Assembly (NCBI GenBank): GCA_032718475.1 | Contig: JAUCBJ010007125.1 | Coordinates: forward strand, 1 to 64,000 | DNA: 64,000 nt | Reading direction: 5' to 3' | Source of the DNA: Nemertoderma westbladi | Taxonomy: Eukaryota; Animalia; Xenacoelomorpha | Part shown: piece by piece, positions 37,612-62,904 of the stretch | Position numbering within the stretch: the stretch's first letter is position 1 | Layout of the letters: each line of letters starts with the position of its first letter | Translations under genes and position numbers: made by a program | Notes under the pieces: generated by a model | What the model was told of the DNA's origin: nothing | Seen by the model: the letters and a program-made list of their open reading frames with translations, nothing else | The model's database searches: none

Positions 37612-37736
37612 GTTAGTAAGCGTTGTACCCAGTGATACCTATTTAGACCTGTAACACTAGGACTGTGACGAACTCTTAAAATAATAAAATTTTCTCGATT
37701 TGATTATCTCATAATATTATAATTTTTAGTAGATAT

Positions 37737-37990
37737 CGATAAAACAATAAATGGTAATTATACCCATTCTTACTTAAATCCCCGATAAGACAATAAATGG
37801 TAATTATACCCATTCTTACTTAAATCCCCGATAAGACAATAAATGGTAATTATACCCATTCTTACTGAAATCCCCGATAAGACAATAAATGGTAATTATA
37901 CCCATTCTTACTGAAATCCCCGATAAGACAATAAATGGTAATTATAACACATTACTGAAATCCTCGATAAGACAATAAATGGTAATTATA
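37737..37990 (+). repeat. 46-bp minisatellite (AAATCCCCGATAAGACAATAAATGGTAATTATACCCATTCTTACTG), left part
   Basis: ~5.5 copies; the same unit resumes at 54114. Confidence 0.93.
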
Positions 37991-38780
37991 CACTGAAAAA
38001 AGTAACCAGTAGTTTTTTTTTAAAAACCACTGGTTCGAAAAACTACCACTGGTAGTTTTTGTAACAAATAAACCAACGGTTTTTTGGCTTAACCGGCAGT
38101 AGAAATTGAGCAATATAACTGGCGGTTTCAACAACATCAAAATACCATGGGTTTTTAATACCGGTGGTTTATTAAACCAACAGTTTGAATTTTAAACAAA
38201 CTGTCGGTTTTAAAGTCGCATCCTTCAAAATCAACCATGGGTCAACCAAGCGATTCTCATACACAAAAAGAATGCGGATATTGCGAAACTCGCGGAATAC
38301 GAAGCCGCACTTATAGAACGAGATATTCAACTATACGAGGACTGGGAAAGGGATATAGATCAGGAATATGAACCAATACCGGTACCGGAATTAGAAAAGT
38401 CATTAATGACACTGGCGGTGAAACCCCCAAAACCCGAGTTCCCGCCTACCATACAGTCTACGTTATCGGCACAGGCCCCGGTGTTCCATCCCCACTGGTT
38501 ACACTTAAAAATGAGGAACCGTATTTCCCATCCAACCCCACAGCAACGAGTGTACCCAAGTACGAGCCTGAAAGGGACTCGGAACGGGATGCCACTCCTC
38601 GATCCAACAACCCGTTTACGTCCACATCACAAAGCCGTAGCCGCGTCATCATTAAAACTCCACCTATCATCGATCCATCGTGTATGGGAGAGAGTGCCGA
38701 TAATTATAACCCTCCTATCGGTGGTTTTTTTGAAAACCGGTGGTTTTTTTTTAAACAACCGTCGGTTCGTTTTTTCAGTG
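37991..38780. mobile_element. CACTG-terminated (CMC/EnSpm-like) non-autonomous element enclosing a gag fragment
   Basis: TA|CACTGAAAAAA... and ...TTTTTTCAGTG|TA, with ~60-bp imperfect TIRs and ACCACTGGT/ACCGGTGGT subterminal repeats. Confidence 0.75.
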
Positions 38781-41700
38781 TAGTCATTCCGGTTCAGACG
38801 ACGTTGGTATCATCCGGGCATTAGAGAACCGACTGGCCATGCCCAAGATGGAGATCCGCACCTTCGAAGGAGATCCCGTCGATTACCTCAGATTCAAGAA
38901 ACGGTTCTTTGCGCAGATTGGATCAACGGACATAGCCGAAGCACAGAAACTGGTATATTTATCGCAATACCTGGGTGACAAACCATGCCGAATTATCGCA
39001 TGCTTTGAAGGAGGAGCTCATGAAGCATACTATGACGCATGGAAGACTCTAGATAAAAGATACGGAAATATCGGGACTATAATTAATAAAACCCTCGAGA
39101 AACTGATCCAGGACGCGGGATCCCTAGGGGACCCACAGAATATCCAAGATTTCTCGGACTCGATGAAGGATGCCTACTACACTCTGAAACCATTAAATAA
39201 GGAGGAACAAGTGAACAACATTCTAAACCTCCGACAGATCGCCCGGAAATTCCCCGGATGGCTACAAAGTAAGTGGGCGTATAAATGCGTAGATCTCCGG
39301 CGCAGACACCCAGATCGAGATCCCAGCTTCCTCGAAATGTCAGCATTCCTGGATGATATCTCTGAAGCCATGAATGACTCGATGTTTTCAAAACAGAGTC
39401 TCGCCAAGTTGGACGGAATAGAGAGCAACTCCAGGAGTAAGATACCCCCGCCGAAACCGAGATTCCGCCCCCCACCGGTGAGTACGATGGCCATTACCAT
39501 GGCCGAGGATTCCGACGACGAAGACTACGAGGAACCGACATCCGCCGAGGAATGGGCGTGTTACCTTGCGAATTGGGCACCCGAGAGGGAAGGCATCACA
39601 AACTCCCTCCTCTGTCTCTTCTGTGGAGAGAAACATAAAGTGGAATTCTGCAGGAAGTTCCAGTTCGCCGAACTCGTCCCACGCTTCGAGGCGATAATGA
39701 AACACCGAGGATGCTTCCGGTGTCTTGGAACGGGTCACTATGTTCGGGATTGCGACCAAAGATCGTGCTGTGCAGTCTGTAACGACCTACGTCATCACAC
39801 GCTCCTCCACATCCCCGCAAACTTCGATTTCACTACCCTCCCCTTTCGGATCGAAGCCAAGCGAAGAGGAGAAACGAACCACGTCTTCAAAGGAACCCGG
39901 ACAACCCAACGGAGAGAAACCAACCCGTTTAAAATCTCCACCGATACACCACAAGTAACAAATATTTCAGCCACGATTAATCTTATAAATCGCCGCTACA
40001 TGGTCTTCGCAAAGGTAATCCCAGTAAGGATTCAAGGAGTCGGCAAATCCCTGACGACGCTCGCGTTCCTTGATAACGGGTCTGACGGAACCATCATCAA
40101 CCGGGATTTCCTCGAGCAACTCGGCCTAGAATATGAACCTTGTAAACGGCCCATACAAACCATCACCGATAACAGAGAGGTAGAGTCCGGGGATGTGCAA
40201 CTCCAGATGGAAGGAGTAATGAAGGGCTACGAAACGGTTAAGCTAACCATCAAGAACGCCTTGGTACACACAGACCTCCGAGTGCGGTTCCGACAATCAG
40301 CCGAGTACGCCCCCCTCATGCAATTGGACCGAGACGATGTAGATCTGAGGTGTCCGCAGTTGGACGTAAACCGCATCACCCTACTGATCGGACTTGATAC
40401 ACCCTAACTACACATCCCCACCGGAGATATCGCCCAATCTATAAAACAGGATGACGGATTTTATGCTGAACGAACAATAATGGGATGGACACTCTGCGGC
40501 ATTAAGGAAGAAACTACTGACACCTATACCTACCTTCCCAAATGTCAGATTAAAGAGAATGCAACCTCCGTGGGTTATTGCTCAGCTACGGACCTTGTCG
40601 GGGATTTGTTTCTGGAGACCGAGAAAACCCAACAAGAGATGATGAAATATTTTAATCTAGAGACCCAGGAGTTCGCTGAAAAGGACGAAAACCCGTCCGA
40701 AGAGGATCAATATTGTATGGACGTTCTCGACCAGGCCACGTTCAAAGACGGACACTGGTGTTCACCTATGCTATGGAAGGACCCAAACAAACCAATGGCA
40801 AACAACGCCAGCATGGCACTTAGGCGACTTAAGGGGATTCTATGCCGGCTGAATGACCAACCCGAGATAAAGGAGAAATATAATACCGTAATCCAAGGAT
40901 ATCTCGACGATGGATTAGCAGAGATGGTACCACGGAATGAACTGCAAGGTGATAAAAGAACATATTATCTCCCAACCCACTATGTGGTAGAAGCCCGGAA
41001 GGGTGGGAAAATCCGAGTGGTAAATGATGCCGCCGCTATGTACCAGGGCGAATCCCTAAACAGTCAGCTTTACACGGGACCCAACATATATAGTACACTC
41101 ATCGGCGTATTGATCAGGTTCAGGGAAAACCGGGTAGCATTCACCTGCGACATCAAGGCCATGTTTCATCAAGTTCGTACGCTACCAAGAGACTCAGACT
41201 GTCTACGTATCCTATGGACGGATAAAACACTAACTCAACAGGAGATTAGTCAACTTACGATAAAGGACGTAGACATAATGCGTATGGTCGTCAGGATCTT
41301 CGGCGCTAAAGACTCGCCGGTAGCATGCAGTGACATGCTAAAGAGAACGGCGACTATGTGCAAAAACGAGTTCCCTCCAACTGTCATAGAAACCATCCGA
41401 CGATGCTTTTACGTGGACGATGGATGCGCCGGCGCAGATAATGTGGACGACGCATATCAGCTAGCAATGGGGATGGTAGAATGTCTAAAGAAAGGAGGTT
41501 TTCCGCTCGTGAAGTTCAGATCCCACGACAAAACACTTATGGAAAAGTTTCCGGAGGACATCCGACTGGAAAATAACAAAATGTATTCGGAGGATGTGGA
41601 ACACCGTGTACTCGGGATTGAATGGGACATAGAATCAGACGAATTCATTTTCAAATATAAACCCCTACCCACCCAAGCCTATGACAAAAAGGGGATGTTT

Positions 41701-44118
41701 GTCAATAAAAAGCGCCATCTTCGACCCACTAAATTTCATATGTCCAGTAACCTTGGCCGGAATGAACCTGATTAAGGAAATGTGGATAGAAGGACTGGGA
41801 TGGGACAAAGAACTCCCCCCACACCTCAGCGTCAAATGGAGAAAATGGACGGAGCAGCTCGAACACCTACATCTTATGCGGATACCTCGACCGTTCTTCC
41901 TCGATAAACTACCCACCGATATCTTCCAGCTCCATACCTTCTCGGATGCTTCGAATACCGGAATTGGCGTAGTCACCTTCTTACGAAGACTCAGCAATGA
42001 TGGAAACGGCGATACGAGCTTCTTATTTTCTAAAGCTAAGACAGTATCCGGGGAATTCGTAGCAACGATTCCAAGACTCGAGCTACAGGCTGCAGTTTGG
42101 GCAGTAAGACAGAATTGCATGGTCATGCGGAACCTATGAATCCCCATCGAGTCTTAACACTTCTGGGTCGATTCGAGTATAGTTCTCTATTATCTCCACT
42201 CTCCATCACGGCGTCACACTACGTTTGTTGCGAACCGAGCCACGGAGATTAAACAGTGTACCGGCCGAGAACAGTGGCACCACGTGAACAGGAAGAAAAT
42301 CCAGTGGACTTATCAAGCCGAGGCGCCACCCCAAAACAACTCGGTAAAAGCAAACTCTGGCTTACAGGCCCGGAATTCCTACAGCAGCCACAATTAACAT
42401 GGAGTACCCGATTCGACCCCGAACTCAATAGCGGAAAATACTCCGAGGACGATAAAGAGATCTGTAAAGTCCATAGAAGCAACACAGTGGAAATTTATAG
42501 TTGTCTGACTGAGCCTGCAAAGGACTCGGGCAGGCACTATAACGTTGCGACGATCATTCAACCAGCGGCGTCTTTACATCTGTTGATCGAGCGAACCTCA
42601 TCAATGAGACGGCTCATCCACCACATTATAACCCTTCGCAACTTCCTACGGTGGAAAGACAACAAGCCGATAGTTCAACGGAGTATACAAGAACTCATTA
42701 TCGCAGAGAAGTGTATCATTGGATATGTCCAGAGAGAAAGTTTCCCCGATGAGTAGGAGCAACTCAGTGCGGGCAAGACCTTGAAACCGGATAGCCCAGT
42801 CTACCAACTGAGACCAATGATGGGAGAGGACGGACTGATCCGACTGAATACCCAGATGGCAAACGCCCCGGTCGAATATGAGGTTAAATACCCGGCGCTT
42901 CTGCCCGGAACTTCGACACTAGCCAAGCTATTAATTCAACAATGTCACGAGGAAAACCATCACGCAGGACAAAACTGGATTATAGCTAATATAAGACAAA
43001 GATATTGGATCACACACATCCAGCCACTGATCCGGAAAGTGTTGAAACGTTGCTTTACCTGCAGAAGATATCTAGCGCCACCACTCACACAAAAGATGGC
43101 CGACTTACCAGCCACCCGTCTACAGCCCGATTCCCCACCGTTCTACGTCACCGGAGTGGACTGTTTCAGACCGTTTACGGTCATCGAACGACGATCCAAC
43201 ATCAAATGCTGGGGGGCCATATTTACGTGCCTTAGGTCTAGGGCAATCTACCTAGACATTGTGGTGAACCTTACGCAACACGCATTCATCAACGCTCTGC
43301 GTCGGTTCGTGGCAAGCAATGGGACATGTCGTCACATGTATTCCGATAACGGCACAAACTTTGTGGGAGGAGAAAGAGAACTTAGAGAGGCGATCGAGGG
43401 ATGGTTTACCGATAACACGGCATCCCAAGTCTGGAAGGAACACCAGATACAGTGGCACTTCCAGACCCCCTTAGCACCCCATACGAGCGGGGTATGGGAG
43501 AAACTGATCGACCTAGTGAAACGATCCATGCGCGTCGCTCTAGGAGACACCCGGGTAACCCATGACACCCTCCGCACAACATTCTGCGAGATCACGGCTA
43601 CCCTGAACAACCGACCCATTGTCCCTATCCGCGACGACCCCACAGACCTGGAGCCCCTTACTCCTAATCACCTACTGGGGAGACCTAAAACTCATGTTCT
43701 CCCGGAGACAATGTTTCCGGATCCCAACGATATTGCGAGACATACAAACTGGAAGAAGGCCCAAGCATTGGCAGCGCACTGGTGGAGAATCTGGGCCCAG
43801 GAGTACCTCATAACCCTCCGGACCAGGAGGAAGTGGAACAACACCTACAGGAATGTCGAAGTTGGCGACATGGTACTAGTAAAAGAAGACCTTAAAGACC
43901 GCGTCCACTGGCCTGTGGCGCGAGTTGTGACAATACATCCGAGTAAAGATGGACTTGCGAGGACTGTGACGATACGAACGGCAAAGGGCCACTACCAACG
44001 CCCTATCCAGAGGCTGTGCCTTCTTGAAGGCAATGACAGTGGTGATTCTACGAGAGGTGATAAGTTCCCTACTAAAGATCCTGCTGCAGACATTGGTGAC
44101 AATTACAAATGCGTTTAA
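38215..44118 (+). pseudogene. BEL/Pao gag-pol polyprotein, disrupted
   Basis: Gag: PKMEIRTFEGDP and three Zn knuckles (CLFCGEKHKVEFC, CFRCLGTGHYVRDC, CAVCNDLRHHTLLH). Protease: FLDNGSDGT. RT: DIKAMF / YVDDG. RNase H: LHTFSDAS, TIPRLELQAA. Integrase: HEENHH..CFTC, GVDCF, SDNGTNF, WEKL. In-frame stops at 40405, 42137 and 42754; frameshifts at ~38490, ~41685 and ~42250. Confidence 0.93.
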
Positions 44119-45354
44119 ACCCTTCTCATCATGTTGACAAACTTTTTTAAACTGTGATTTATCGACAATGAAAATGGACCCCCCTTAAACCAACTGTAAC
44201 CACGCAATGGTATTTGTGTTTCCTCGTGTGTTATGTGGAGTCCAGCGTCACCCTGCAGATGTTTCGACTGACGCAGGATCGTTTATGTATTGTTTACCCT
44301 GATTTTGGTCATCGGGACCGACGATATTGGATTATTGGAAATGGAAAAGATTTGAAGTGGAATTCATTGTATTCATCGCAGTATGTTATGTTGTCCGTTG
44401 CGTGCGCAGTTCGGGGCGTAGGCGGTGTAACTAGTCCAGCTGTAGATCCCGGATTGCCGCGCAACACCCCCTCTATCCCGTTATTCTGGTGGGTCCATGG
44501 TGCATCCACGTGACTTCGACGATAGAGGGTTTTATGTTCTCAGTCGCGTTATTCTGGTGGGACCGTTGCGTGGATTTTGGGGCGTAGGCGGTGTAACTAG
44601 TCCAGCTGTAGATCCCAGAATGTTGCGTAACCCCATCCCACATGACTTCGTCGACTGAGCTTTATGTTGCTGGGAGTGTTATTCTGGTGGGTCCCTGGTG
44701 CATCCACGTGACTTCACTTCCAGCGTCTTCATTGTCCGTTACGTGCGCAGTTTGGGGCGTAGGCGGTGTAACTAGCCCAGCTGTAGATCCCAGATTGCCG
44801 CGTAACACCCCTTCCACGACAAAGATTTCCCAAAGAAGATGATTGAATGTAGTTGGAAATGATGAAAAGAATCAGACAACTCTACTATAAACCTGAATGA
44901 TGACGCGTATGATGATGAAAATGTAATGATGCGCACCCTGGTGCTGCGCTTATAACAAATGATGATAGCCGGGGGGCTATAACCCCAATGATGATGTGGA
45001 AATAAATGAAATGTGAAATAAATGGTGGAAATAAATGTGTTGAAATATGTTGAAATAAATGAAATGAGATGAAATAATAACGAGAAATGAAAAAAGACAA
45101 AAAAAAGGTATAAAAAAGTCTAAAGAAAAGAATTGGAAAAAAGAAAGGACATAAAAAGTCATAAAAAACTGGTTGGATATTAATGTATAGTTATAGTAAC
45201 TGTAAATGCTGAATGTATTAGCAATAAGATGATAGATGCCTATATAGCAATGTTATTTAATAAACTGAACTGAATTATTCTGCAATCACTATAGTTTCAG
45301 ACTTTCTGGACTTATAATTAACTGATCTAATTTGTAACGGATATAATCGTAAAT

Positions 45355-47829
45355 ATGGACCCAAATCACCAAATTATCGGCGAATTACGTAACACGATAG
45401 ATCTACTGGAATATTCGCAACCCGGATCCCCTGACTTTGATACAAATTGGAGCACCCTGCTAAATGAGAACGTGCGAGTCGTTAAATTCACCGGGCGAGA
45501 GGGACCGGATTCCAAGAATCTACGAGCCCTCCGGTTAGCCGATGCTAGTACGAGACTGAAAAGAACTCGGAACGCAAAGGCAACCAGAGGGGACGATTCG
45601 TCGTTTTGGGAAACGTTCCAGCAGAGCGTCTACAGATCCCAATGTTTGATCTACGACAACGAGGGAAACGCGACGCCCACCTCGAAAGCAATTACGTTGG
45701 CGAGATGTCAAAGTTTCGTCGACGACAAGAGTACGTACCTCGCCCACTGGGGAAACCTGTTGGAGTGTACGGCGACGCTTCGAGAGGAACGTATATCGAC
45801 CATCCAAAATCGCGACGACTACCAAGAAAAACACGGGGCGAAAGAATACGGTCGATCCTTGGTCGTCGTCCTCGGAACCCTGGACGGTTTGGTATTGGCG
45901 TGTCGAATATTTCCGACACCCAGACAGGAAGTGCAGGCAGCCGGAGCGATCTGGTTGCTACCTTCGGAAATCCAAAAGATCCTCTTCGACTTCGACGTCA
46001 TTAAAATCGGGTCGGATATAAAGGCGGACGTCCGGAACGACTACGCGAACGCTCCTTCAGGAAGAAACCGACGAGATGACCTCAACGCCCTTAGCCATTG
46101 CGTCGACACTCAAACGCTACTAGCCTGGTTACGATTCGCCGAGTTCATGCGAGGATTCCAAGAGGTGAGACCGACGAAATCCGGGATCGGCTACCTCGCT
46201 GTGCTAAATGGCGGCATCAACTTCAAACCCCAGAAATTCCGGGACTATAATAAAATATATGGTGGATACCCGGGATTAGAAATAAAGAGCGAGCGAGAGG
46301 GTCGATGGAAGGATGTTGATCGGAAGTGGACGATACACCAAAGGTGGGAGAATCCCGATTGACGGAACTACGTCTACGTCGTTATGGAGTGCTACACTGT
46401 CGCTAAGTTTATCTGTAAAACTCTCGATAACCTTATTACGGCGGTTCCTCTTTCCTTCGTCGACTACGACTGGAACGAGGTTATAAACCACGTGTTCAAA
46501 GCGGTCGAGAACATCACACTGGGAGAGACTAAAACGCTCGCTGTTATCGATTCCTGGGACGAGAGCGGACCTTACGACATCCCTACGATTACCGAACTTC
46601 TCGGTGCGGAGGAGCCTCTGATTTCTTCGGAAGGGGAAGAAATATGGCTAAATGAGGGTGTTCTACTCTCCACCCCGAAGCGACAACTCGAGCCGGAGGC
46701 CGCTTACTAACCGGCCGCCAAACGGGTTGCCTCCGCCGAACCAACGACGGAAGCGGGCGTTTCCTCACCACTCGGCTTCGGTAGCCCTGCGAGGGAGTTG
46801 GTTACTACCTTCGCGTTAAACGACTTCGGCGATATGTGCCAAAGGTTATCCCCGTATCCTTTCCCGGGTGGCGAAGACTGGTCGTCGGAGATTCCGAGTA
46901 CCAGCAATCAACAGACCCGCTCTGCGATATTGGTCGAGAAGGGCCTCAGCGCTGTGCTGACTCCCGACGATCTCCTCGGAATCCCTCCGTCGAAAACCCC
47001 GGCACCTCTTCGCCGACCAGCGGTGGCTACTACACCCTCCGTTCCTCAGGATCCTATGCGACTAACCCGTTGGTACGCCGAGCAAACCGAATGGATCCAT
47101 CGCCAGAAACGGTCGTCCGAGTTGAGACCGACGGGACACAAAGAAGGTTATCGTAGCGAGGACCTACTACGCAAAAGCCCAGCCTTCCGCAGGCTACCGA
47201 CCACCGCGAATATTCAGAAGAGCGACCGACGACTCGAGTATCACGTCGGCGTCCCGATTCCGATATTCCCCGGTCGAGAGATGCAATTGGAGGTGTGCGG
47301 TGACTGTGGTTCGGAGCAGTGCCCACGCGGTAGAAGGAATCGGGTTACCGATTCGTGCCTCCAGCTCCTCGGGATACTCTATTGCCCATACTGCGCGACA
47401 TCGGGCCACGACGTTTCCGTCTGCCCGATCCTATATAACCTCTGCACCACGTGCGGTTTCCGTGGACATTCCTCTAGCCCCCGCTGCTATATCAAATGTC
47501 CTACCAAAGACGTTACCGCTATGGGAAATATGGTCATGTTTGAAACATACGCAAACAGCCACATGAAGACCAAGGTTCGGAGAAACGCTCGGAATATCGC
47601 GCAGGAGATGGCGTGCGGGTACTTCTCCTTCCCGGAACGCCTCCACACGTCGGCCACGCTGCCTTTCCATTACGTGGATTTGTTGCTGAGCGTCGGATTA
47701 TTCGGCCCATTCGAAGTCATTAGACGCTTATACTCGTATAAAGAGGAGTTCGGTGACGGAGAGTGGTTCCTCGAGGTTCGCAACTCCGAGTTGGAACGAC
47801 GAACCGATATGATCCCTGATCTGATCTGA
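45355..47829 (+). pseudogene. Extra ORF copy 1: DEDDy-like 3'-5' exonuclease + CCHC zinc fingers; two in-frame stops, C-terminally truncated
   Basis: ORFs 45355, 46384 and 46798 share one frame. The TGA at 46360 and the TAA at 46708 are CGA and CAA in copy 2. Confidence 0.8.
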
Positions 47830-47845
47830 TCCCGATGATTTTTAT

Positions 47846-48607
47846 AACTTTGTGGGAGGAGAAAGAGAACTTAGAGAGGCGATCGAGGGATGGTTTACCG
47901 ATAACACCGCATCCCAAGTCTGGAAGGAACACCAGATACAGTGGCACTTCCAGACCCCCTTAGCACCCCATACGAGCGGGGTATAGGAGAAACTGATCGA
48001 CCTAGTGAAACGATCCATGCGCGTCGCTCTAGGAGACACCCGGGTAACCCATGACACCCTCCGCACAACATTCTGCGAGATCACGGCTACCCTGAACAAC
48101 CGACCCATTGTCCCTATCCGCGACGACCCCACAGACCTGGAGCCCCTTACTCCTAATCACCTACTGGGGAGACCTAAAACTCATGTTCTCCCGGCGACAA
48201 TGTTTCCGGATCCCAACGATATTGCGAGACATACAAACTGGAAGAAGGCCCAAGCATTGGCAGCAGACTGGTGGAGAATCTGGGCCCAGGAGTACCTCAT
48301 AACCCTCCGGACCAGGAGGAAGTGGAACAACACCTACAGGAATGTCGAAGTTGGCGACATGGTACTAGTAAAAGAAGACCTTAAAGACCGCGTCCACTGG
48401 CCTGTGGCGCGAGTTGTGACAATACATCCGAGTAAAGACGGACTTGCGAGGACTGTGACGATACGAACGGCAAAGGGCCACTACCAACGCCCTATCCAGA
48501 GGCTGTGCCTTCTTGAAGGCAATGACAGTGGTGATTCTACGAGAGGTGATAAGTTCCCTACTAAAGATCCTGCTGCAGACATTGGTGACAATTACAAATG
48601 CGTTTAA
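47846..48607 (+). pseudogene. Duplicated C-terminal half of integrase
   Basis: Near-identical to 43357-44118 (offset 4489), with a TGG>TAG stop at ~47985. Confidence 0.92.
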
Positions 48608-49844
48608 ACCCTTCTCATCATGTTGACAAACTCTTTTAAACTGTGATTTATCGACAATGAAAATGGACCCCCCTTAAACCAACTGTAACCACGCAATGGT
48701 ATTTGTGTTTCCTCGTGTGTTATGTGGAGTCCAGCGTCACCCTGCAGATGTTTCGACTGACGCAGGATCGTTTATGTATTGTTTACCCTGATTTTGGTCA
48801 TCGGGACCGACGATATTGGATTATTGGAAATGGAAAAGATTTGAAGTGGAATTCATTGTATTCATCGCAGTATGTTATGTTGTCCGTTGCGTGCGCAGTT
48901 CGGGGCGTAGGCGGTGTAACTAGTCCAGCTGTAGATCCCGGATTGCCGCGCAACACCCCCTCTATCCCGTTATTCTGGTGGGTCCATGGTGCATCCACGT
49001 GACTTCGACGATAGAGGGTTTTATGTTCTCAGTCGCGTTATTCTGGTGGGACCGTTGCGTGGATTTTGGGGCGTAGGCGGTGTAACTAGTCCAGCTGTAG
49101 ATCCCAGAATGTTGCGTAACCCCATCCCACATGACTTCGTCGACTGAGCTTTATGTTGCTGGGAGTGTTATTCTGGTGGGTCCCTGGTGCATCCACGTGA
49201 CTTCACTTCCAGCGTCTTCATTGTCCGTTACGTGCGCAGTTTGGGGCGTAGGCGGTGTAACTAGCCCAGCTGTAGATCCCAGATTGCCGCGTAACACCCC
49301 TTCCACGACAAAGATTTCCCAAAGAAGATGATTGAATGTAGTTGGAAATGATGAAAAGAATCAGACAACTCTACTATAAACCTGAATGATGACGCGTATG
49401 ATGATGAAAATGTAATGATGCGCACCCTGGTGCTGCGCTTATAACAAATGATGATAGCCGGGGGGCTATAACCCCAATGATGATGTGGAAATAAATGAAA
49501 TGTGAAATAAATGGTGGAAATAAATGTGTTGAAATATGTTGAAATAAATGAAATGAGATGAAATAATAACGAGAAATGAAAAAAGACAAAAAAAAAGGTA
49601 TAAAAAAGTCTAAAGAAAAGAATTGGAAAAAAGAAAGGACATAAAAAGTCATAAAAAACTGGTTGGATATTAATGTATAGTTATAGTAACTGTAAATGCT
49701 GAATGTATTAGCAATAAGATGATAGATGCCTATATAGCAATGTTATTTAATAAACTGAACTGAATTATTCTGCAATCACTATAGTTTCAGACTTTCTGGA
49801 CTTATAATTAACTGATCTAATTTGTAACGGATATAATCGTAAAT

Positions 49845-52445
49845 ATGGACCCAAATCGCCAAATTATCGGCGAATTACGTAACACGATAGATCTACTGGA
49901 ATATTCGCAACCCGGATCCCCTGACTTTGATACAAATTGGAGCACCCTGCTAAATGAGAACGTGCGAGTCGTTAAATTCACCGGGCGAGAGGGACCGGAT
50001 TCCAAGAATCTACGAGCCCTCCGGTTAGCCGATGCTAGTACGAGACTGAAAAGAACTCGGAACGCAAAGGCAACCGGAGGGGACGATTCGTCGTTTTGGG
50101 AAACGTTCCAGCAGAGCGTCTACAGATCCCGATGTTTGATCTACGACAACGAGGGAAACGCGACGCCCACCTCGAAAGCGATTACGTTGGCGAGATGTCA
50201 AAGTTTCGTCGACGACAAGAGTACGTACCTCGCCCACTGGGGAAACCTGTCGGAGTGTACGGCGACGCTTCGAGAGGAACGTATATCGACCATCCAAAAT
50301 CGCGACGACTACCAAGAAAAACACGGGGCGAAAGAATACGGTCGATCCTTGGTCGTCGTCCTCGGAACCCTGGACGGTTTGGTATTGGTGTGTCGAATAT
50401 TTCCGACACCCAGACAGGAAGTGCAGGCAGCCGGAGCGATCTGGTTGCTACCTCCGGAAATCCAAAAGATCCTCTTCGACTTCGACGTCATTAAAATCGG
50501 GTCGGATATAAAGGCGGACGTCCGGAACGACTACGCGAACGCTCCTTCAGGAAGAAACCGACAAGACGACCTCAACGCCCTTAGCCATTGCATCGACACT
50601 CAAACGCTACTAGCCTGGTTACGATTCGCCGAGTTCATGCGAGGATTCCAAGAGGTGAGACCGACGAAATCCGGGATCGGCTACCTCGCTGTGCTAAACG
50701 GTAGCATCAACTTCAAACCCCAGAAATTCCGGGACTATAATAAAATATATGGTGGATACCCGGGATTAGAAATAAAGAGCGAGCGAGAGGGTCGATGGAA
50801 GGACGTTGATCGGAAGTGGACGATACACCAAAGGTGGGAGAATCCCGATCGACGGAACTACGTCTACGTTGTTATGGAGTGCTACACTGTCGCTAAGTTT
50901 ATCTGTAAAACTCTCGATAACCTTATTACGGCGGTTCCTCTTTCCTTCGTCGACTACGACTGGAACGAGGTTATAAACCATGCGTTCAAAGCGGTTGAGA
51001 ACATCACACCGGGAGAGACTAAAACGCTCGCTGTTATCGATTCCTGGGACGAGAGCGGACCTTACGACATCCCTACGATTACCGAACTTCTCGGTGCGGA
51101 GGAGCCTCTGATTTCTTCGGAAGGGGAAGAAATATGGCTAAATGAGGGTGTTCTACTCTCCACCCCGAAGCGATAACTCGAGCCGGAGGCCGCTTACCAA
51201 CCGGCCACCAAACGGGTTGCCTCCGCCGAACCAACTACGGAAGCGGGCGTTTCCTCACCACTCGGCTTCGGTAGCCCTGCGAGGGAGTTGGTTACTACCT
51301 TCGCATTAAACGACTTCGGCGATACGTGCCAAAGGTTATCCCCGTATCCTTTCCCGGGTGGCGAAGACTGGTCGTCGGAGATTCCGAGTACCAGCAATCA
51401 ACGGACCCGCTCTGCGATATTGGTCGAGAAGGGCCTCAGCGCTGCGCCGACTCCCGACGATCTCCTCGGAATCCCTCTGTCGAAAACCCCGGCACCTCTT
51501 CGCCGACCAGCGGTGGCTACTACACCCTCCGTTCCTCAGGATCCTATGCGACTAACCCGTTGGTACGCCGAGCAAACCGAATGGATCCACCGCCAGAAAC
51601 GGTCGTCCGAGTTGAGACCGACGGGACACAAAGAAGGTTATCGTAGCGAGGACCTACTACGCAAAAGCCCAGCCTTCCGCGGGCTACCAACCACCACGAA
51701 TATTCAGAAGAGCGACCGACGACTCGAGTATCAAGTCGGCGTCCCGATTCCGATATTCCCCGGTCGAGAGATGCAATTGGAGGTGTGCGGTGACTGTGGT
51801 TCGGAGCAGTGCCCACGCGGTAGAAGGAATCGGGTTACCGATTCGTGCCTCCAGCTCCTCGGGATACTCTATTGCCCATACTGCGCGACATCGGGCCGCG
51901 ACGTTTCCGTCTGCCCGATCCTATATAACCTCTGCACCACGTGCGGTTTCCGTGGATATTCCTCTAGCCCCCGCTGCTATATCAAATGTCCTACCAAAGA
52001 CGTTACCGCTATGGGAAATATGGTCATGTTTGAAACATACGCAAACAGCCACATAAAGACCAAGGTTCGGAGAAACGCTCGGAATATCGCGCAGGAGATG
52101 GCGTGCGGGTACTTCTCCTTCCCGGAACGCCTCCACACGTCGGCCACGCTGCCTTTCCATTACGTGGATTTGTTGCTGAGCGCCGGATTATTCGGCCCAT
52201 TCGAAGTCATTAGACGCTTATACTCGTATAAAGAGGAGTTCGGTGACGGAGAGTGGTTCCTCGAGGCTCGCAACTCCGAGTTGGAACGACGAACCGATAT
52301 GATCCCGATGCCATCGAAAGGAAGAGCCGCCAGGAGACAAGCCAAAGCGTTGCTCACGATGGATGTTGACGCTCCTCTACCAGCTATAGCGATCGACGAG
52401 AGCCGACGGGCGAAGAGGCGAAAGGCGTATCAGAGAAAGAAATAG
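49845..52445 (+). pseudogene. Extra ORF copy 2, full length 866 codons, single in-frame stop
   Basis: ORFs 49845 and 51288 are in frame. The TAA at 51174 is CAA in copy 1. Motifs: IYDNEG, LPPEIQKILFDFDVIKIGSDIKADV, IDTQ, SGIGYL, W..YVYVVMEC, Cys-rich C-terminus, basic tail. Confidence 0.82.
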
Positions 52446-52619
52446 TGGATCGGGATATTCCAGGAACATTTATCGAACATTTATTTTTATACATATATAT
52501 ATAAACTCTAGGCCAAATTAATTAAAACTATGCAATATTAAATTTGGGTTTTTTATATTGGGAATGACCTACGCAAACTCAATCTACCGACAGACTTCAC
52601 TAAGGTCATTGGGGGGGAC

Positions 52620-54113
52620 TGTTCGCGGTATTTCAACTTTCCATAACGCGAGTTGAATATTTTTTGTATTGATTTAAAATGATTATTCCGATATTACTAC
52701 TGGATGCGGGACCATGGGTTTTGGGCACATTCTATAAACTGGGGGCGATTTATGGGCGAACTTTGGGGCGACTTACAGGGTACGGGACTAATTTCATGTT
52801 CATAAGGGCCAGGGGGGATGGAAAATTCAAGCAGTATTCAGGTTAGCCTGATTACTATTAGGCCCTGGCCAACTTCCTGCTGCCTGTAGAGGTGGATTTG
52901 GTAACGCGCCAGGCCTAAAGGACAAGGACTGCCCTTAGCGGTCCCTGGCCAACAGCAGTTATTACGAGCCTGAAAAGGACATCGGAACGCCAGCTGCTTG
53001 TGTCAGGGACTTGCGACGGGAAACGACACGACAGACCCCTAGCCAAGCCGTACTGGTTCTCAATGATCGTTCCCTTCGGGGTTCGTGATGGGTGGGACGG
53101 ACACGCAAAAGGGTCTACCGACTAACAGAGGAAGGGTTTGACGAGGACTGCCCTTAGCGGTCTCTGGTCAACAGCAGTTATTACGAGCCTGAAAAGGACA
53201 TCGGAACGCCGGCTGCTTGTACCAGGGATTTGCGACGGGAACCGACGACAGACCCCTTAGCCAAGCCGTACTGGTTCTCGATGCTCGTTCCCTTCGGGGT
53301 TCGTGAGGGGTGGGACGGACACGCGACGGGGTCGAAAGACAAAGGACTGGACTCTACTGGCCTACCGACTGTTCGGAGCAGTTTCTCGGCTGCCGAAGCG
53401 ACTACGAGCCTGAAAGGGACTCGGAAAGCCTAGGTGGTTGGGTTTCTGCGATGAACCGACGGACCCCTAGCCAAGCCATACTGGTTCTCGATGATCGTTC
53501 CCTTCGGGGTTCGTGAGGGGTGGGACGGACACGCGAACGGGTCCACCAACACGACAGACTCCTAGCCAAGCCGTACTGGTTCTCGATGACCGATCCCTTC
53601 GGGGTTCGAGAGGGGTGGTACGGATACGCGACAGAGTCTACCGACTGGACCGACCCTTAGCCAAGCCGTGCTGGTTCTCGATGATCGATCCCTTCGGGGT
53701 TCGGGAGGGGTGGAACGGACAAGCGACAGTGTCGACCGACACCGACACTACAGCATCAAGACTAGGACCGAGGGAAAATCTGGGGAACATTAGTTAGGCT
53801 AAAATCTGAGCGAACAGTGGGTAATTAAATAATATACTGTAGGGATTTATATTGTCGTGTATAATTATTGTGAATATTTGGTGTATATTGATTTGGGGAA
53901 GCCCAAAATTATTCTCAATCAGGGTTCAGTGAGATTAACTACATTAAAGAATATATCCAACCAATGCAGCTTTTTCTCAACCGCAATCCTGCATCTAAGA
54001 AATTCCTCCTTCTCCACAATCAATATCCGGTGACTGGCCGGGACTCCATGGTCTGTAAAGCCCCGCCTCCAGCATCGGCGTTTTTCCCCCCTGGTGTCGG
54101 GATAACGGCAACA
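52620..54113 (+). mobile_element. 3' LTR (1494 bp) of the BEL/Pao element
   Basis: TGTTCGCGG follows the polypurine tract at 52611-52618. It ends GGCAACA exactly where the 46-bp minisatellite resumes (CCGATAAGAC). Confidence 0.88.
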
Positions 54114-55220
54114 CCGATAAGACAATAAATGGTAATTATACCCATTCTTACTAAAATCCCCGATAAGACAATAAATGGTAATTATAACACATTACTGAAA
54201 TCCCCGATAAGACAATAAATGGTAATTATACCCATTCTTACTGAAATTCCCGATAAGACAATAAATGGTAATTATACCCATTCTTACTGAAACCCCGAGA
54301 AGACAATAAATGGTAATTATACCCATTCTTACTGAAATCCCCGAGAAGACAATAAATGGTAATTATACCCATTCTTACTGAAATCCCCGATAAGACAATA
54401 AATGGTAATTATACCCATTACTGAAATCCCCGAGAAGACAATAAATGGTAATTATACCCATTCTTACTGAAATCCCCGAGAAGACAATAAATGGTAATTA
54501 TACCCATTACTGAAATCCCCGAGAAGACAATAAATGGTAATTATACCCATTCTTACTGAAATCCCCGATAAGACAATAAATGGTAATTATACCCATTCTT
54601 ACTGAAATCCCCGAGAAGACAATAAATGGTAATTATACCCATTCTTACTGAAATCCCCGAGAAGACAATAAATGGTAATTATACCCATTCTTACTGAAAT
54701 CCCCGAGAAGACAATAAATGGTAATTATACCCATTCTTACTGAAATCCCCGATAAGACAATAAATGGTAATTATACCCATTACTGAAATCCCCGAGAACA
54801 CAATAAATAATAATTAATTCTTACTGAAATCCCCGAGAAGACAATAAATGGTAATTATACCCATTCTTACTGAAATCCCCGAGAAGACAATAAATGGTAA
54901 TTATACCCATTCTTACTGAAATCCCCGAGAAGACAATAAATGGTAATTATACCCATTCTTACTGAAATCCCCGAGAAGACAATAAATAGTAATTATATCC
55001 ATTACTGAAATCCCCGATAAGACAATAAATGGTAATTATACCCATTCTTACTGAAATCCCCGATAAGACAATAAATGGTAATTATAACACATTACTGAAA
55101 TCCCCGATAAGACAATAAATGGTAATTATGCCCATTACTGAAATCCCCAAGAAGACAATAAATGGTAATTATACCCATTCTTACTGAAATCCCCGATAAG
55201 ACAATAAATGGTAATTATAC
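54114..55220 (+). repeat. 46-bp minisatellite, right part (~24 copies)
   Basis: Same unit as 37737-37990, with 43-bp variants. Confidence 0.95.
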
Positions 55221-55414
55221 CGCTACCACACTCACGTCTGCACCCAGGATCCCGCAAACACCAATAGTCAATACAGGTGGAAAATCTAGAAACAGCTGAA
55301 CTAGGTGTAGTGTGTTTGGTGAGTAATACCACCCCGACACTACATTAATATTATTACTATTAATAATTAATTAATATATTAAATAGGTATTATTATTATT
55401 ATTATTATTTTATT

Positions 55415-56778
55415 ACAGCTATTGAGGGACACTGGGTGCATACGTGAGTGTGGTAGCACAGCTATTGAGGGGCACTGGGTACGGACGTGAGTTTGGTAGC
55501 ACAGCTATTGAGGGGCACTGTGTGCATACGTGAGTATAGAAGCACAGCTGTTGAGGGACACTGGGTGCATACGTGAGTTTGGTAGCACAGCTATTGAGGG
55601 GCACTGGGTACATACGTGAGTTTGGTAGCACAGCTATTGAGGGGCACTGTGTGCATACGTGAGTATAGAAGCACAGCTGTTGAGGGACACTGGTTGCATA
55701 CGTGAGTTTGGTAGCACAGCTATTGAGGGACACTGGGTACATACGTGAGTTTGGTAGCACAACTATTGATGGACACTGGGTGCATACGTGAGTATGGAAG
55801 CACAGCTGTTGAGGGACACTGGGTGCGGACGTGAGTTTGGAAGCACATCTGTTGAGGGACACTGGTTGCATAAGTGAGTGTGGTAGCACAGCTATTGAGG
55901 GACACTGGGTGCAGACGTGAGTTTGGTAGCACAGCTATTGAGGGACACTGGGCGCATACGTGAGTTTGGTAGCACAGCTATTGAGGGACACTGGGTGCAT
56001 ACGTGAGTTTGGTAGCACAACTATTGTGAGACACTGGGTGCATACGTGAGTATGGAAGCACAGCTGTTGAGGGACACTGGGTGCGGACGTCAGTTTGGAA
56101 GCACAGCTGTTGAGGGACACTGGGTGCATAAGTGAGTGTGGTAGCACAGCTATTGAGGGACACTGGGTGCAGACGTGAGTGTGGTAGCACAGCTATTGAG
56201 GGACACTGGGTGCAGACGTGAGTGTGGTAGCACAGCTATTGAGGGACACTGGGTGCATATGTGTGGTAGCACAGCTATTGAGGGACACTGGGTGCATATG
56301 TGTGGTAGCACAGCTATTGAGGGACACTGGGTGCATATGTGTGGTAGCACAGCTATTGAGGGACACTGGGTGCAGACGTGAGTGTGGTAGCACAGCTATT
56401 GAGGGACACTGGGTGCATACGTGAGTGTGGTAGCTATTGAGGGACACTGGATGCATACGTGAGTGTGGTAGCACAGCTATTGAGGGGCACTGGGTACATA
56501 CGTGAGTTTGGTAGCACAGCTATTGAGGGGCACTGGGTGCATACGTGAGTATAGAAGCACAGCTGTTGAGGGACACTGGGTGCATACGTGAGTTTGGTAA
56601 CACAGCTATTGAGGGACACTGGGTGCATACGTGAGTTTGGTAGCACAACTATTGAGGGACACTGGGTGCATACGTGAGTATGGAAGCACAGCTGTTGAGG
56701 GACACTGGGTGCATACGTGAGTATGGAAGCACAGCTGTTGAGGGACACTGGGTGCATAAGTGAGTAATGGTAGCACAG
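55415..56778 (+). repeat. 43-bp minisatellite (CAGCTATTGAGGGACACTGGGTGCATACGTGAGTTTGGTAGCA), ~32 copies
   Basis: Tandem array ending ~70 bp before exon 6, with one inverted partial unit at 55222-55246. Confidence 0.95.
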
Positions 56779-57013: not shown

Positions 57014-58127
57014 GTAGGTTGTTATAATCTCCGACGACCAAAATTTAATATAATATTTTTTACTTTGAAACTTTATTTCACTTGCATTCAATTTGCGCCA
57101 CTCTGCAAATTCTAAAGGTTTTTAATCTTAGTGTATATATGAAACTTTGAGATATGAATAAATACCATAAATCATAAATATATGAATACTGAACACGTAG
57201 TTATTAACCGGTACCTAAAAATACACTGGGTCGAAATTCAAAATGGCGTGCCAGTGCATATTCGGATTTAGCCATCACCTATACATACAGTAAGTACATT
57301 TTGAAGTAAAAATTAAGATATTTAAAAGTGTTCCAAAATGCACCGTACTTCCAAAAATTGCTCAGATTTCAACGATCCTCCCACGTTGTGTTGTTTTTAG
57401 ATTTACATAAGAACCGCATATCAGACTAAAGGAGTAAGTTAAAATGTATTTCTTGTTGGGTTTATGTGATTTTTGTTTGTTTGGTTATAATTCTGATAAA
57501 CCCCAACTATACGACATTATGATTTCTCCGGTGACTGGGCACATAAGTTAATTTATAAAATGTGTTTCAGTTGCCTATGGTTGACTTGGATTTTGGAATT
57601 AAGACTTAATGTGCTCTGGTTACTCGGAGAAACCTAGTTCTGAAATATTGATTCTGAATTAGATCACCCAACCACTAAATTCTCATTAAAACTACCACGT
57701 ACACCTAACCATAAAGTGGTAAAAAAACATAAGAAATTCCACATTCACGTTCAAAATTTATTAGTTTAGAGCGAGAGCCTTCGGGTTGGTTTCTGACATT
57801 TAGTTCTAGTTAAAATTTATTTATTTATTTTATTATTTATTTATTTGATTCATTCTTGTAACTTGGGAGGAGAACCTAATTGCCATAACTGGGCCTCTCT
57901 CGTGCAATCTTCCATCTATAATCATTAAAATACAAACTTTGTAGAAGAGCGCATTCTTTGGCTTATTATTCAACTTGTGTGCGTTACAATCAATTTAGTT
58001 TGACAATATCAAAATACAAACAATTATTGCAAAATCTTAAAAAAGTTCCTGTGTCTTCAAAAGGTTGACAAATTGAAGAATTTTCAATAAAACTTGCGGA
58101 ATGTTAAATAAAAGTTGAGGAATCCAG

Positions 58128-61100
58128 TCAATACGATAAACTGTTTAACCTTTACAGCGACGACCAATGATATACTCAATACGATAAACTGTTTAACCTT
58201 TACAGCGACGACCAATGATCTACTCAATACGATAAACTGTTTAACCTTTACAGCGACGACCAATGATTTACTCAATACGATAAACTGTTTAACCTTTACA
58301 GCGACGACCAATGATCCACTCAATACGATAAACTGTTTAACCTTTACAGCGACGACCAATGATCTACTCAATACGATAAACTGTTTACTTTTACAACGAC
58401 GACCAATGATCTACTCAATACGATAAACTGTTTACTTTTACAGCGACGACCAATGATCTACTCAATACGATAAACTGTTTACTTTTACAGCGACGACCAA
58501 TGATCCACTCAATACGATAAACTGTTTACTTTTACAGCGACGACCAATGATCCACTCAATACGATAAACTGTTTACTTTTACAGCGACGACCAATGATCT
58601 ACTCAATACGATAAACTGTTTACTTTTACAGCGACGACCAATGATCCACTCAATACGATAAACTGTTTACTTTTACAGCGACGACCAATGATCCACTCAA
58701 TACGATAAACTGTTTAACCTTTACATCGCACAACCAATGATCTACTCAATACGATAAACTGTTTACTTTTACAGCGACGACCTATGATCTACTCAATACG
58801 ATAAACTGTTTACTTTTACAGCGACGACCAATGATCCACTCAATACGATAAACTGTTTAACTTTTACAGCGACGACCAATGATCCACTCAATATGATAAA
58901 CTGTTTAACCTTTACATCGCACGACCAATGATCCACTCAATACGATAAACTGTTTACTTTTACAGCGACGACCAATGATCTACTCAATACGATAAACTGT
59001 TTACTTTTACAGCGACGACCAATGATCCACTCAATATGATAAACTGTTTAACCTTTACATCGCACAACCAATGATCCACTCAATACGATAAACTGTTTAC
59101 TTTTACGCCGACGACCAATGATCCACTCAATACGATAAACTGTTTACTTTTACAGCGACGACCAATGATCCACTCAATATGATAAACTGTTTAACCTTTA
59201 CATCGCACGACCAATGATCCACTCAATACGATAAACTGTTTACTTTTACAGCGACGACCAATGATCCACTCAATACGATAAACTGTTTACTTTTACAGCG
59301 ACGACCAATGATCTACTCAATACGATAAACTGTTTACTTTTACAGCGACGACCAATGATCTACTCAATATGATAAACTGTTTAACCTTTACATCGCACAA
59401 CCAATGATCCACTCAATACGATAAACTGTTTACTTTTACAGCGACGACCAATGATCTACTCAATACGATAAACTGTTTACTTTTACACCGACGACCAATG
59501 ATCCACTCAATACGATAAACTGTTTACTTTTACAGCGACGACCAATGATCTACTCAATACGATAAACTGTTTACTTTTACAGCGACGACCAATGATCCAC
59601 TCAATACGATAAACTGTTTACTTTTACACCGACGACCAATGATCCACTCAATACGATAAACTGTTTACTTTTACAGCGACGACCAATGATCTACTCAATA
59701 CGATAAACTGTTTACTTTTACAGCGACGACCAATGATCCACTCAATACGATAAACTGTTTACTTTTCCCCCGACGACCAATGATCTACTCAATACGATAA
59801 ACTGTTTACTTTTACACCGACGACCAATGATCCACTCAATATGATAAACTGTTTAACCTTTACATCGCACAACCAATGATCCACTCAATACGATAAACTG
59901 TTTACTTTTACAGCGACGACCAATGATCTACTCAATACGATAAACTGTTTACTTTTACAGCGACGACCAATGATCTACTCAATACGATAAACTGTTTACT
60001 TTTACAGCGACGACCAATGATCCACTCAATACGATAAACTGTTTACTCTCACAGCGACGACCTATGATCTACTCAATACGATAAACTGTTTACTTTTACA
60101 GCGGACGACCAATGATCTACTCAATACGATAAACTGTTTAACCTTTACATCGCACAACCAATGATCCACTCAATACGATAAACTGTTTACTTTTACAGCG
60201 ACGACCAATGATCCACTCAATACGATAAACTGTTTAACCTTTACATCGCACAACCAATGATCCACTCAATACGATAAACTGTTTACTTTTACAGCGACGA
60301 CCAATGATCCACTCAATACGATAAACTGTTTACTTTTACAGCGACGACCAATTATCCACTCAATATGATAAACTGTTTAACCTTTACATCGCACGACCAA
60401 TGATCCACTCAATACGATAAACTGTTTACTTTTACAGCGACGACCAATGATCCACTCAATACGATAAACTGTTTACTTTTACAGCGACGACCAATGATCC
60501 ACTCAATATGATAAACTGTTTAACCTTTACATCGCACGACCAATGATCCACTCAATACGATAAACTGTTTACTTTTACAGCGACGACCAATGATCCACTC
60601 AATACGATAAACTGTTTACTTTTACAGCGACGACCAATGATCCACTCAATACGATAAACTGTTTACTTTTACAGCGACGACCAATGATCCACTTAATATG
60701 ATAAACTGTTTAACCTTTACATCGCACGACCAATGATCCACTCAATACGATAAACTGTTTACTTTTACAGCGGACGACCAATGATCCACTCAATACGATA
60801 AACTGTTTACTTTCACAGCGACGACCTATGATCTACTCAATACGATAAACTGTTTACTTTTACAGCGACGACCAATCATCCACTCAATATGATAAACTGT
60901 TTAACCTTTACATCGCACGACCAATGATCCACTCAATACGATAAACTGTTTACTTTTACAGCGACGACCAATGATCCACTCAATACGATAAACTGTTTAC
61001 TTTTACAGCGACGACCAATGATCCACTCAATATGATAAACTGTTTAACCTTTACATCGCACGACCAATGATCCACTCAATACGATAAACTGTTTACTTTT

Positions 61101-62900: not shown

Positions 62901-62904
62901 AATA

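Follow-up and report, generated by a model that had tools for sequence, protein, structure and literature searches.

A predicted DEDDy-type exonuclease with CCHC zinc knuckles encoded 3' of the integrase in a decayed BEL/Pao retrotransposon of Nemertoderma westbladi

Small RNAs hold down animal transposons, and only few countermeasures encoded by the elements themselves have been described. A long open reading frame (ORF3) in a retrotransposon of Nemertoderma westbladi raises the question of which protein such an element carries beyond gag and pol, and what it could serve for. An earlier note on this DNA, made from the letters alone, had read ORF3 as a 3'-5' exonuclease fused to tandem CCHC zinc fingers. 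The window referred to below is the whole stretch analysed, 64,000 nucleotides of contig JAUCBJ010007125.1 (positions 1 to 64,000, forward strand).

The element is a decayed BEL/Pao LTR retrotransposon. It has a DUF1759 gag, a Pao RNase H (Peptidase_A17) and a DUF5641 domain 3' of the integrase, all three matched in Pfam, in the order PR-RT-RH-IN; the order gag, PR, RT, RH, IN and the family-specific domains are those of known BEL/Pao elements (PMC3118150). Its features are:

37989–38782, no strand assigned: piece whose two ends form an imperfect inverted repeat of 38 bp, with an outer TA on either side, occupying the expected site of the 5' LTR and gag start
38755–40407, + strand: BEL/Pao gag (DUF1759, zinc knuckles) and aspartic protease (PF03564 E 7.7e-13, PF13650 E 3.4e-5, PF00098 E 1.3e-3)
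40408–42139, + strand: reverse transcriptase (YVDD) and Pao-type RNase H, interrupted by stops and a frameshift (PF00078 E 0.016, weak; PF05380 E 4.1e-35)
42757–44118, + strand: integrase with DUF5641 tail (PF17921 E 1.6e-9, PF00665 E 2.2e-3, PF18701 E 7.9e-30)
44119–45354, + strand: 1.2-kb spacer between integrase and ORF3; contains an A/T-rich stretch and three structured repeats of ~83 bp each
45355–47829, + strand: ORF3 copy 1, with two internal stops, codon 336 (base 46360) and codon 452 (base 46708); the duplication junction truncates it near codon 821
47846–52306, + strand: second unit of a tandem duplication (3' integrase, spacer, ORF3), 98.9% identical to 43357–47816
49845–52445, + strand: ORF3 copy 2, 866 codons, broken once by an internal stop at base 51174 (codon 444), and with a basic C-terminal tail
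52611–52618, + strand: polypurine tract, ~165 bases 3' of the ORF3 stop
52620–54113, + strand: inferred 3' LTR, TG..CA, 1,494 bp, with internal 95- and 219-bp repeats

The interior of the piece at 37989–38782 appears gag-like. No 5' LTR was present within the window, where the sole LTR-like matches upstream were motifs of 24–38 bp, and the 3' LTR was therefore inferred from the polypurine tract, its TG..CA ends and contigs of other isolates rather than from an LTR pair. Its TG at 52620 follows the purine tract, its closing CA at 54113 abuts a 46-bp satellite, and a shorter form of the stretch occurs in contig 27 of run X5, a run that we guess to be RNA. Of the polypurine tract and 3' LTR described earlier, the tract and the TG..CA repeat were thus recovered but an LTR pair was not, the 5' LTR being missing from this damaged copy. 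The LTR repeats folded no better than their shuffles (z 0.19 and 0.96), and Rfam gave no match in 37000–55500 at E ≤ 1.

The extra frame of about 866 codons lies, as first described, between integrase and polypurine tract/3' LTR and is present twice, owing to a 4.5-kb tandem duplication with short repeated letters at its junction. The internal stops fall at different codons in copies 1 and 2, in agreement with the claim that the stops of one are sense codons in the other. Both copies in the window are dead and their decay is neutral, with 13 of 38 differences silent where 34.6% is expected. Between the copies 38 transitions stand against 3 transversions, mostly at CpG, a bias which suggests that the host methylates these repeats. 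Of 51 CpG sites in the spacer none differs between the copies, whereas in ORF3 31 of 258 do (p = 0.004), and the spacer is a candidate internal promoter for ORF3.

The following parts of ORF3 are discussed below:

50067–50960, + strand: predicted DEDDy 3'-5' exonuclease domain, aa 75–372, unbroken in copy 2
50145, 50151, 50517, 50835, 50865 and 50877, + strand: positions in copy 2 of the domain residues D101, E103, D225, W331, Y341 and E345, respectively
47296–47499, + strand: Cys/His cluster of copy 1, aa 648–715, with two nucleocapsid-type CCHC knuckles (pairwise against P0001, E 3e-11)

The motifs on which the nuclease reading had been based lie where they were placed: IYDNE from residue 99, LPPEI at 202, GSDIKAD at 219–225, IDTQ at 250, SGIGYL at 276, W331 and YVYVVME at 339–345. 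A search of 1.84 billion proteins returned no close relative of ORF3 but two remote ones, P0001 and P0002. Joint alignments were run four times, the bacterial DEDDy set comprising either 17 or 37 domains, and in three of the runs the bacterial invariant D, E, D, Y and D fell on D101, E103, D225, Y341 and E345, which supports the DEDDy assignment. In the fourth ExoI alone slipped; the ExoI D-x-E is thus D101/E103 in three of four alignments and the ExoII Asp is D225 in all four. The five invariant columns and the W-x-x-P motif match DEDDy enzymes in order and spacing. The proposed ExoI register, which entails an insert of about 60 residues, was upheld by these three alignments and by a gapless 19-residue window derived from both relatives, whose best score was at E103 (rank 1 of 425; equalled by 0 of 2000 shuffles). 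MAFFT with the three proteins alone gave a different ExoI register without an Asp, at aa 144–145, and this was rejected as it ranked over 200 of 425.

The canonical ExoIII Y-x-x-x-D was not found in ORF3: Y341 is present, and Glu (E345) takes the place of the Asp, as it does in P0001 and P0002. Judged by its residues, the ExoIII of ORF3 is a variant site and not a canonical DEDDy one. Since all three proteins have Glu as their last catalytic residue, it is a family trait and not a product of decay. P0002 has Glu at ExoII too. All four catalytic acid positions still carry a carboxylate, and the Tyr is retained, although the proteins are just 24–30% identical.

Family and structure searches were less decisive. 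With HHalign, three bacterial DEDDy profiles scored 30–33 against at most 22 and 19 for the controls (40 column-shuffled profiles for each of two profiles), at probabilities of just 24–44% and spanning 44–73 columns around ExoII; bacterial HMMs gave the window's own domain E 0.1. That domain had no family match in Pfam, NCBIfam or PHROG at E ≤ 10, and the curated cut-off of PF01612 was not reached, P0001 alone touching this family (E 0.044–0.2). Language-model neighbours in the ESM Atlas were WRN-like exonucleases (0.93), with 25 of 30 matches in the PF01612 set. AlphaFold models from single- and three-sequence input were unreliable (pLDDT 32.1 and 33.4), with a best Foldseek E of 0.44 for EXD2, a best VIA Z of 3.0 and the ExoI strand unplaced; a wide fold search with the model of pLDDT ~33 returned DEDD nucleases in 9 of 50 rows at a Z of at most 3.0. 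As both models are poor, the fold searches merely lean toward DEDD. Taken together, the domain very probably has the DEDDy fold.

No env-like features were found, in agreement with the earlier statement that ORF3 has neither signal peptide nor transmembrane helix, except that the hydropathy scan, on which this point rests, showed one hydrophobic stretch at aa 168–186 (Kyte-Doolittle 19-mer 2.08). We do not take it for a membrane helix, because it aligns with the core strands of the relatives and was modelled as two strands. There is likewise no env-like Pfam match in ORF3, and this lone hydrophobic stretch is internal, in alignment with strands of the nuclease.

Two canonical-type knuckles are intact in copy 1 (C677-C680-H685-C690 and C697-C700-H705-C711), which confirms the tandem CCHC claim for this copy only, since both are altered in copy 2. 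A third Cys cluster (648–668) is non-canonical. ORF3 is thus laid out as nuclease, linker of ~270 residues, two knuckles and an extra C-terminal domain, and the basic C-terminal tail could hint at a role in the nucleus. The entire layout, nuclease, linker, CCHC knuckles and C-terminal domain, recurs in P0001, which matches both halves of ORF3 independently (pairwise E 4e-16 and 3e-11) and whose knuckles are similar to NCp7 chains (E 1e-4). Further searches were blank: word-indexed protein searches at near and longer lengths gave nothing new, a three-sequence profile returned P0001 alone, scans for related loci in metagenome contigs, viral contigs and prokaryote genomes found none, and tblastn of P0001 against phage and plasmid sequences gave only matches of E 6–10. 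One tblastn match that was inspected (L004) lacked annotation or a relevant ORF. Sequence searches of the PDB gave no nuclease match; where a hit lay beyond the knuckles and had E > 0.01, it was counted as chance. As a lead only, the nearest Atlas cluster of P0001 is rich in Euglenozoa and combines PF01612 with zf-CCHC (0.86).

Extra DEDDy frames in LTR retrotransposons, mentioned in the earlier note for rotifers, are indeed on record for the bdelloid Juno and Vesta, along with ORFs of Athena/Terminon elements (Rodriguez, Kenefick and Arkhipova, 2017; PMC5408684). Like ORF3 here, those of Juno and Vesta are non-env third frames 3' of pol, of DEDDy type, with one Asp replaced by Glu and without membrane features. 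By description, on which the comparison with the rotifer ORF3s rests, the motif there is DEED and here D-E-D-E, and no tandem nucleocapsid-type knuckles are described. That paper, whose elements are the rotifer Juno/Vesta families, contains neither BEL nor Pao as a whole word; it reports no clear link between the DEDDy ORF3 and copy number, and no functional test. WRN-exo, EXD2 and Mut-7 (PF01612) share the order D-x-E, D, W-x-x-P, Y-x-x-x-acid and are the nearest neighbours in the Atlas and fold searches, but ORF3 falls under every curated cut-off and differs in its Glu at ExoIII, its long insert after ExoI and its location in a mobile element. Another transposon-carried DEDDy domain is that of Dada, which is canonical DEDD and lies inside the DDE transposase of a DNA transposon (PMC3706591). 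A similar layout is that of Trypanosoma brucei RNase D (TbRND), in which CCHC knuckles C-terminal to the DEDDy exonuclease bind the RNA that is trimmed, a combination that its authors term very unusual (PMC7797062). TbRND is a host enzyme trimming gRNAs, with a canonical DEDD site and four knuckles past a 28-residue linker, whereas ORF3 has two knuckles past ~270 residues, an extra C-terminal domain and a mobile element as host. In the sequence comparison TbRND (7c42) gave E 1.9, a match confined to the knuckles. Because the two proteins show no significant direct similarity, convergence and descent are equally likely.

The full-text literature searched described no DEDD ORF for BEL/Pao; such a case could be recorded in Repbase, Dfam, GyDB, subscription journals, the paper on Terminons or the supplements to PMC3118150 and PMC5408684. 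In the main text of the BEL/Pao survey 'exonuclease' has 0 occurrences, and elements with env are few (PMC3118150). By the literature searched, DEDDy third ORFs are already known from rotifers; the novel points are their presence in a BEL/Pao element, their fusion to knuckles and a D-E-D-E site, and the arrangement is extended to a second major LTR group.

As even env is rare in BEL/Pao, the role of ORF3 is likely accessory rather than core. RNA rather than DNA is its probable substrate, by analogy with TbRND, since CCHC knuckles hold single-stranded RNA; the added RNA-binding module yields a concrete prediction, namely that the enzyme, like TbRND, works on the 3' ends of single-stranded RNA. 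Our leading reading, offered tentatively and at somewhat short of an even chance, is that in active copies ORF3 is a knuckle-guided RNA exonuclease that trims host small-RNA guides and weakens silencing of the element. It would be expressed from the spacer as a separate message, its knuckles would guide the exonuclease to single-stranded RNA and, as the least certain step, the nuclease would trim host small silencing RNAs. Arenavirus NP is a viral precedent for a DEDD nuclease turned on host defence (PMC7968707). The possible nuclear role of the C-terminal tail and the missing link to copy number in the rotifers (PMC5408684) count against this reading. The wider proposal is doubtful, namely that the whole D-E-D-E exonuclease-knuckle family, including the remote relatives in other hosts, is a retrotransposon anti-silencing enzyme that destroys or over-trims piRNA or siRNA guides and is linked to the high copy number of the family. 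On that proposal an animal LTR element would carry a gene for an enzymatic counter-defence.

Possible too, if improbable, is that the enzyme trims the element's own nucleic acids, be it the 3' end of genomic RNA, the tRNA primer or the ends of pre-integration cDNA, with the knuckles binding element RNA in the manner of nucleocapsid, which they resemble. An 18-bp hairpin motif might be the binding site: it has 6 matches in the window where 0 are expected, all of them in gag, ORF3 and the LTR, the last with three. Processing of element RNA 3' ends was proposed by Rodriguez et al. (PMC5408684), and trimming of transposition ends for the Dada exonucleases (PMC3706591). ORF3 is, however, unfused to gag or pol, and BEL/Pao elements seem generally to replicate without a third ORF.

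It is unlikely that the nuclease site is weak or dead and that the protein acts as an RNA-binding decoy or scaffold, cf. EXD1 and Maelstrom. The Glu at ExoIII in all three proteins, the second Glu of P0002 and the 60-residue insert after ExoI would fit this, as would the trace activity left to TbRND with Ala at the ExoIII Asp (PMC7797062). But retention of four carboxylates and the Tyr at such low identity would be unusual for a dead site, and the rotifer ORF3s likewise swap one Asp for Glu (DEED; PMC5408684). Two-metal catalysis has a better than even chance of outlasting the Asp-to-Glu change. Whether the D-E-D-E site is active bears on the annotation of variant DEDD proteins, and the nuclease domain, unbroken in one natural copy, is assayable as is.

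That ORF3 is a neutral passenger or separate insertion without a working part in the element is very unlikely. For it speak the neutral differences between the window copies and the linker of the diverged contig X4 record 19, which differs by 16 bases, not a multiple of three. Against it, ORF3 is on the strand of pol and ends shortly before the polypurine tract, its flanks showed no inverted repeats when scanned for them, and it shares the hairpin motif with gag and LTR. Public contigs hold many variant copies with ORF3 in place; in those of three studies integrase end, spacer, ORF3 and LTR were covered in 30 of 30 bins (depth not being copy number, genes were not ranked by it), and these contigs also bridge spacer to ORF3 and ORF3 to polypurine tract. 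Older differences in ORF3 show a silent excess, 14 of 22 versus 6.9 expected (p = 0.002), in 33 of the best 40 rows, chosen by support, of 615 variant places; of the other rows 6 fell outside ORF3 and one was that of the stop. ORF3 is thus, in all likelihood, a selected part of the element.

That ORF3 proofreads in trans for the reverse transcriptase, on the model of coronavirus ExoN and its polymerase, can nearly be dismissed: nidovirus and phage DEDD nucleases proofread, but a 10-kb element should have little need of it and no link to the reverse transcriptase was seen. Equally improbable is a merely coincidental motif series in a domain that is not a DEDD nuclease, for although the window protein has no significant family or structure match, the five invariant columns and W-x-x-P agree in order and spacing, and the Atlas and fold-search leanings agree with one another.

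A decayed LTR element lies at ~38.2-54.1 kb on the + strand of the window. Its Pfam matches comprise a DUF1759 gag, protease, reverse transcriptase (weak), Pao RNase H (E 4e-35), integrase and DUF5641 (E 8e-30); this set places it in BEL/Pao, in keeping with the earlier note. The extra frame, ORF3, lies between the integrase and the 3' LTR.

44118, + strand: integrase stop, followed by a 1,236-bp spacer and then ORF3
44119-45354 and 48608-49844, + strand: spacer, one per duplicated unit, between integrase and ORF3
52620 (TG) to 54113 (CA), + strand: inferred 3' LTR, preceded by a purine tract

A 4.5-kb unit (3' integrase, spacer and ORF3) has been duplicated in tandem with 98.9% identity. ORF3 copy 2 (49845-52445) has 866 codons and one stop, and copy 1 has two stops, at codons other than that of copy 2, and is cut off near codon 821; the long frame after integrase is thus present twice with different stops in each copy, as first noticed from the sequence. 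In ORF3 the two copies are separated by 38 transitions and 3 transversions, most of them at CpG; this pattern points to a biological duplication, and both copies are decaying. Between the units, CpG changes affect none of the 51 spacer sites, against 31 of 258 sites for ORF3 and 5 of 42 for the integrase. The sparing of the spacer might reflect gene conversion or an internal promoter that is unmethylated; the first of its 83-bp repeats has a strong predicted fold (z -3.3).

No match for the ORF3 protein was found in Pfam, NCBIfam or PHROG, and protein and metagenome-contig searches returned no close relatives. A HMMER search of 1.84 billion representative proteins gave two remote matches, P0001 (648 aa, E 2.7e-6) and P0002 (434 aa, E 7.6e-4), both singletons from ENA assemblies. 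The C-terminal half of ORF3, which was outside the query, also matches P0001 (pairwise E 3e-11), so that the two share a layout of nuclease, linker, CCHC zinc knuckles and C-terminal domain. The P0001 knuckles match retroviral nucleocapsid chains (E 1e-4). Behind the knuckles, a conserved domain (P0001 aa 560-608, ORF3 aa ~735-780) reads F-E-x-[WY]-A ... G-[FY]-F-x-F-P ... L-P-F-x-Y-V-[ED]-L-L and has no Pfam match.

It is highly probable that the nuclease domain adopts a DEDDy fold. Motifs, profiles, a language model and structure all lean this way, none being decisive by itself. ORF3, P0001 and P0002 were aligned together with bacterial PF01612 domains, which ORF length and score divide into 17 short stand-alone ones and 20 resembling RNase D or Pol I. 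In three of four alignments the residues invariant in the bacterial domains (D, E, D, Y and D) fall on D101, E103, D225, Y341 and E345, the series singled out in the earlier note; the fourth slips at ExoI only. In two of two alignments W331 falls on the Trp that is invariant among the stand-alone domains. MAFFT without the bacterial rows chose another ExoI register. A 19-residue stretch of the relatives, with the ExoI Glu as its last residue, was scanned without gaps: E103 ranked 1 of 425 and none of 2000 shuffles reached its score. A stretch of 12 residues gave no significant result (221 of 2000 shuffles). The Glu that replaces the usual ExoIII Asp, also remarked on earlier, is present in all three proteins and is therefore a family trait, and the predicted ORF3 site is strictly D-E-D-E-y and non-canonical.

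HHalign scored 30.3, 30.7 and 32.6 against three bacterial profiles (pairwise E 8e-4 to 2e-4, probability 24-44%), and column-shuffled controls for two of them (n=40 each) peaked at 21.8 and 18.8. An HMM of all 37 bacterial domains found P0001 at E 3e-5 and the ORF3 domain only at 0.1. The language model placed the ORF3 domain at 0.93, and 25 of 30 matches belong to a set headed by WRN-like exonucleases, a cluster in which 38% of the members carry PF01612; the top three P0001 clusters all contain PF01612 (0.77-0.86, to be taken as leads only). Both structure models of ORF3 were poor (pLDDT 32.1 and 33.4), and Foldseek on such a model returned nothing at E<=0.001; EXD2 nevertheless made up 10 of the 43 rows among the matches listed and all 8 entries of a second fold comparison (Z 2.1-2.4). 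The best Z in a wide search of 48,161 chains was 3.0, and 9 of the 50 rows listed, including all 8 with at least 116 aligned residues, are DEDD nucleases. These fold alignments begin past ExoI and bear on the remainder of the domain.

ORF3 DNA, whole or in part, occurs in five sequencing runs from four studies, which were picked by their ORF3 match and one of which may be the window's own source. Three runs labelled organism A cover 30 of 30 bins across 48300-54113 (8,867, 3,794 and 206 contigs) with hundreds of variant places, as expected for a multi-copy family. One contig spans the spacer-ORF3 joint and another the joint of ORF3 stop and purine tract; in a family member ~80% alike, the nuclease part is connected to the knuckles, and the linker length differs by 16 bases. 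The copy 2 stop is absent from contigs covering that place. Of 33 listed ORF3 variant places, 22 are common to both window copies and hence older than the duplication; 14 of these 22 are silent where 6.9 would be expected (p=0.002), a count from a small, tool-selected sample that is not a dN/dS. Places private to copy 2 (4 of 10 silent) and copy-to-copy differences (13 of 38 silent) fit neutrality. In a run of organism B, a second species label, low-depth contigs match the spacer, ORF3 and the LTR at 95-99%; they could stem from a close relative, a mixed sample or transfer.

Judged on sequence, ORF3 is a real feature with a predicted nuclease function, and the knuckle fusion and D-E-D-E site are common to a small, apparently undescribed protein family. 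DEDDy extra ORFs, mentioned in the earlier note for rotifers, are indeed documented in Juno, Vesta and Terminons, with function untested there (Rodriguez et al. 2017, PMC5408684); those carry DEED, whereas the N. westbladi site is D-E-D-E, and the main text mentions neither BEL nor Pao. The rotifer case is the only one cited in the parts covered of two reviews (PMC6338049, PMC6431247). Dada, as described in the excerpts covered of PMC3706591, bears its DEDDy domain on a DNA transposon rather than, as here, a DEDDy-like domain on a BEL/Pao LTR element. In the portions covered of a BEL/Pao survey (PMC3118150), few elements carry env and the word exonuclease is absent from the main text. No DEDD ORF in BEL/Pao was met in the literature searched, repeat databases lying outside that scope, within which this would be the first example.

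ORF3 may be made from its own message, the CpG-spared spacer resembling an unmethylated promoter. The knuckles would hold single-stranded RNA and pass its 3' end to a two-metal site, as in Trypanosoma brucei RNase D, whose knuckles bind substrate and in which D80A or E82A abolishes cleavage (PMC7797062, sections covered). Trimming would tentatively be directed at host small-RNA guides, since the gene is accessory, unfused to gag/pol and EXD2/Mut-7-like, and the host appears to methylate the element. Nucleases of the EXD2/Mut-7 class trim small RNAs. Close rivals, each somewhat less probable, are an action on the RNA or cDNA ends of the element itself and, slightly behind it, a non-catalytic decoy. 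For the host small-RNA target there is a parallel in arenavirus NP, a DEDD nuclease turned against host defence (PMC7968707, as far as covered).

An 18-bp motif occurs at 38561, 45549, 50039, 52963, 53182 and 53403, that is in a gag-like piece, ORF3 and (three times) the LTR (6 matches, 0 expected). It forms a short hairpin in 5 of 5 copies folded (z -0.5 to -3.0), a possible packaging or protein-binding signal, and its sharing among gag, ORF3 and LTR ties ORF3 to the element. The window holds no 5' LTR; at its expected place, 37989-38782, is a piece bounded by inverted repeats, with TA ends and a gag-like interior, possibly a deletion or capture driven by a DNA transposon. One 46-bp satellite occurs to either side of the element (37737-37991 and 54114-55221), which therefore lies within that array. 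Two exons of an ankyrin-repeat gene, presumably FEM1-like, lie at 32026-33258, and the element is probably in one of its introns. Long strand-skewed satellites occupy 11280-31974 and 58122-62901 (35-bp unit, ~600 copies; 47-bp unit, ~100 copies).
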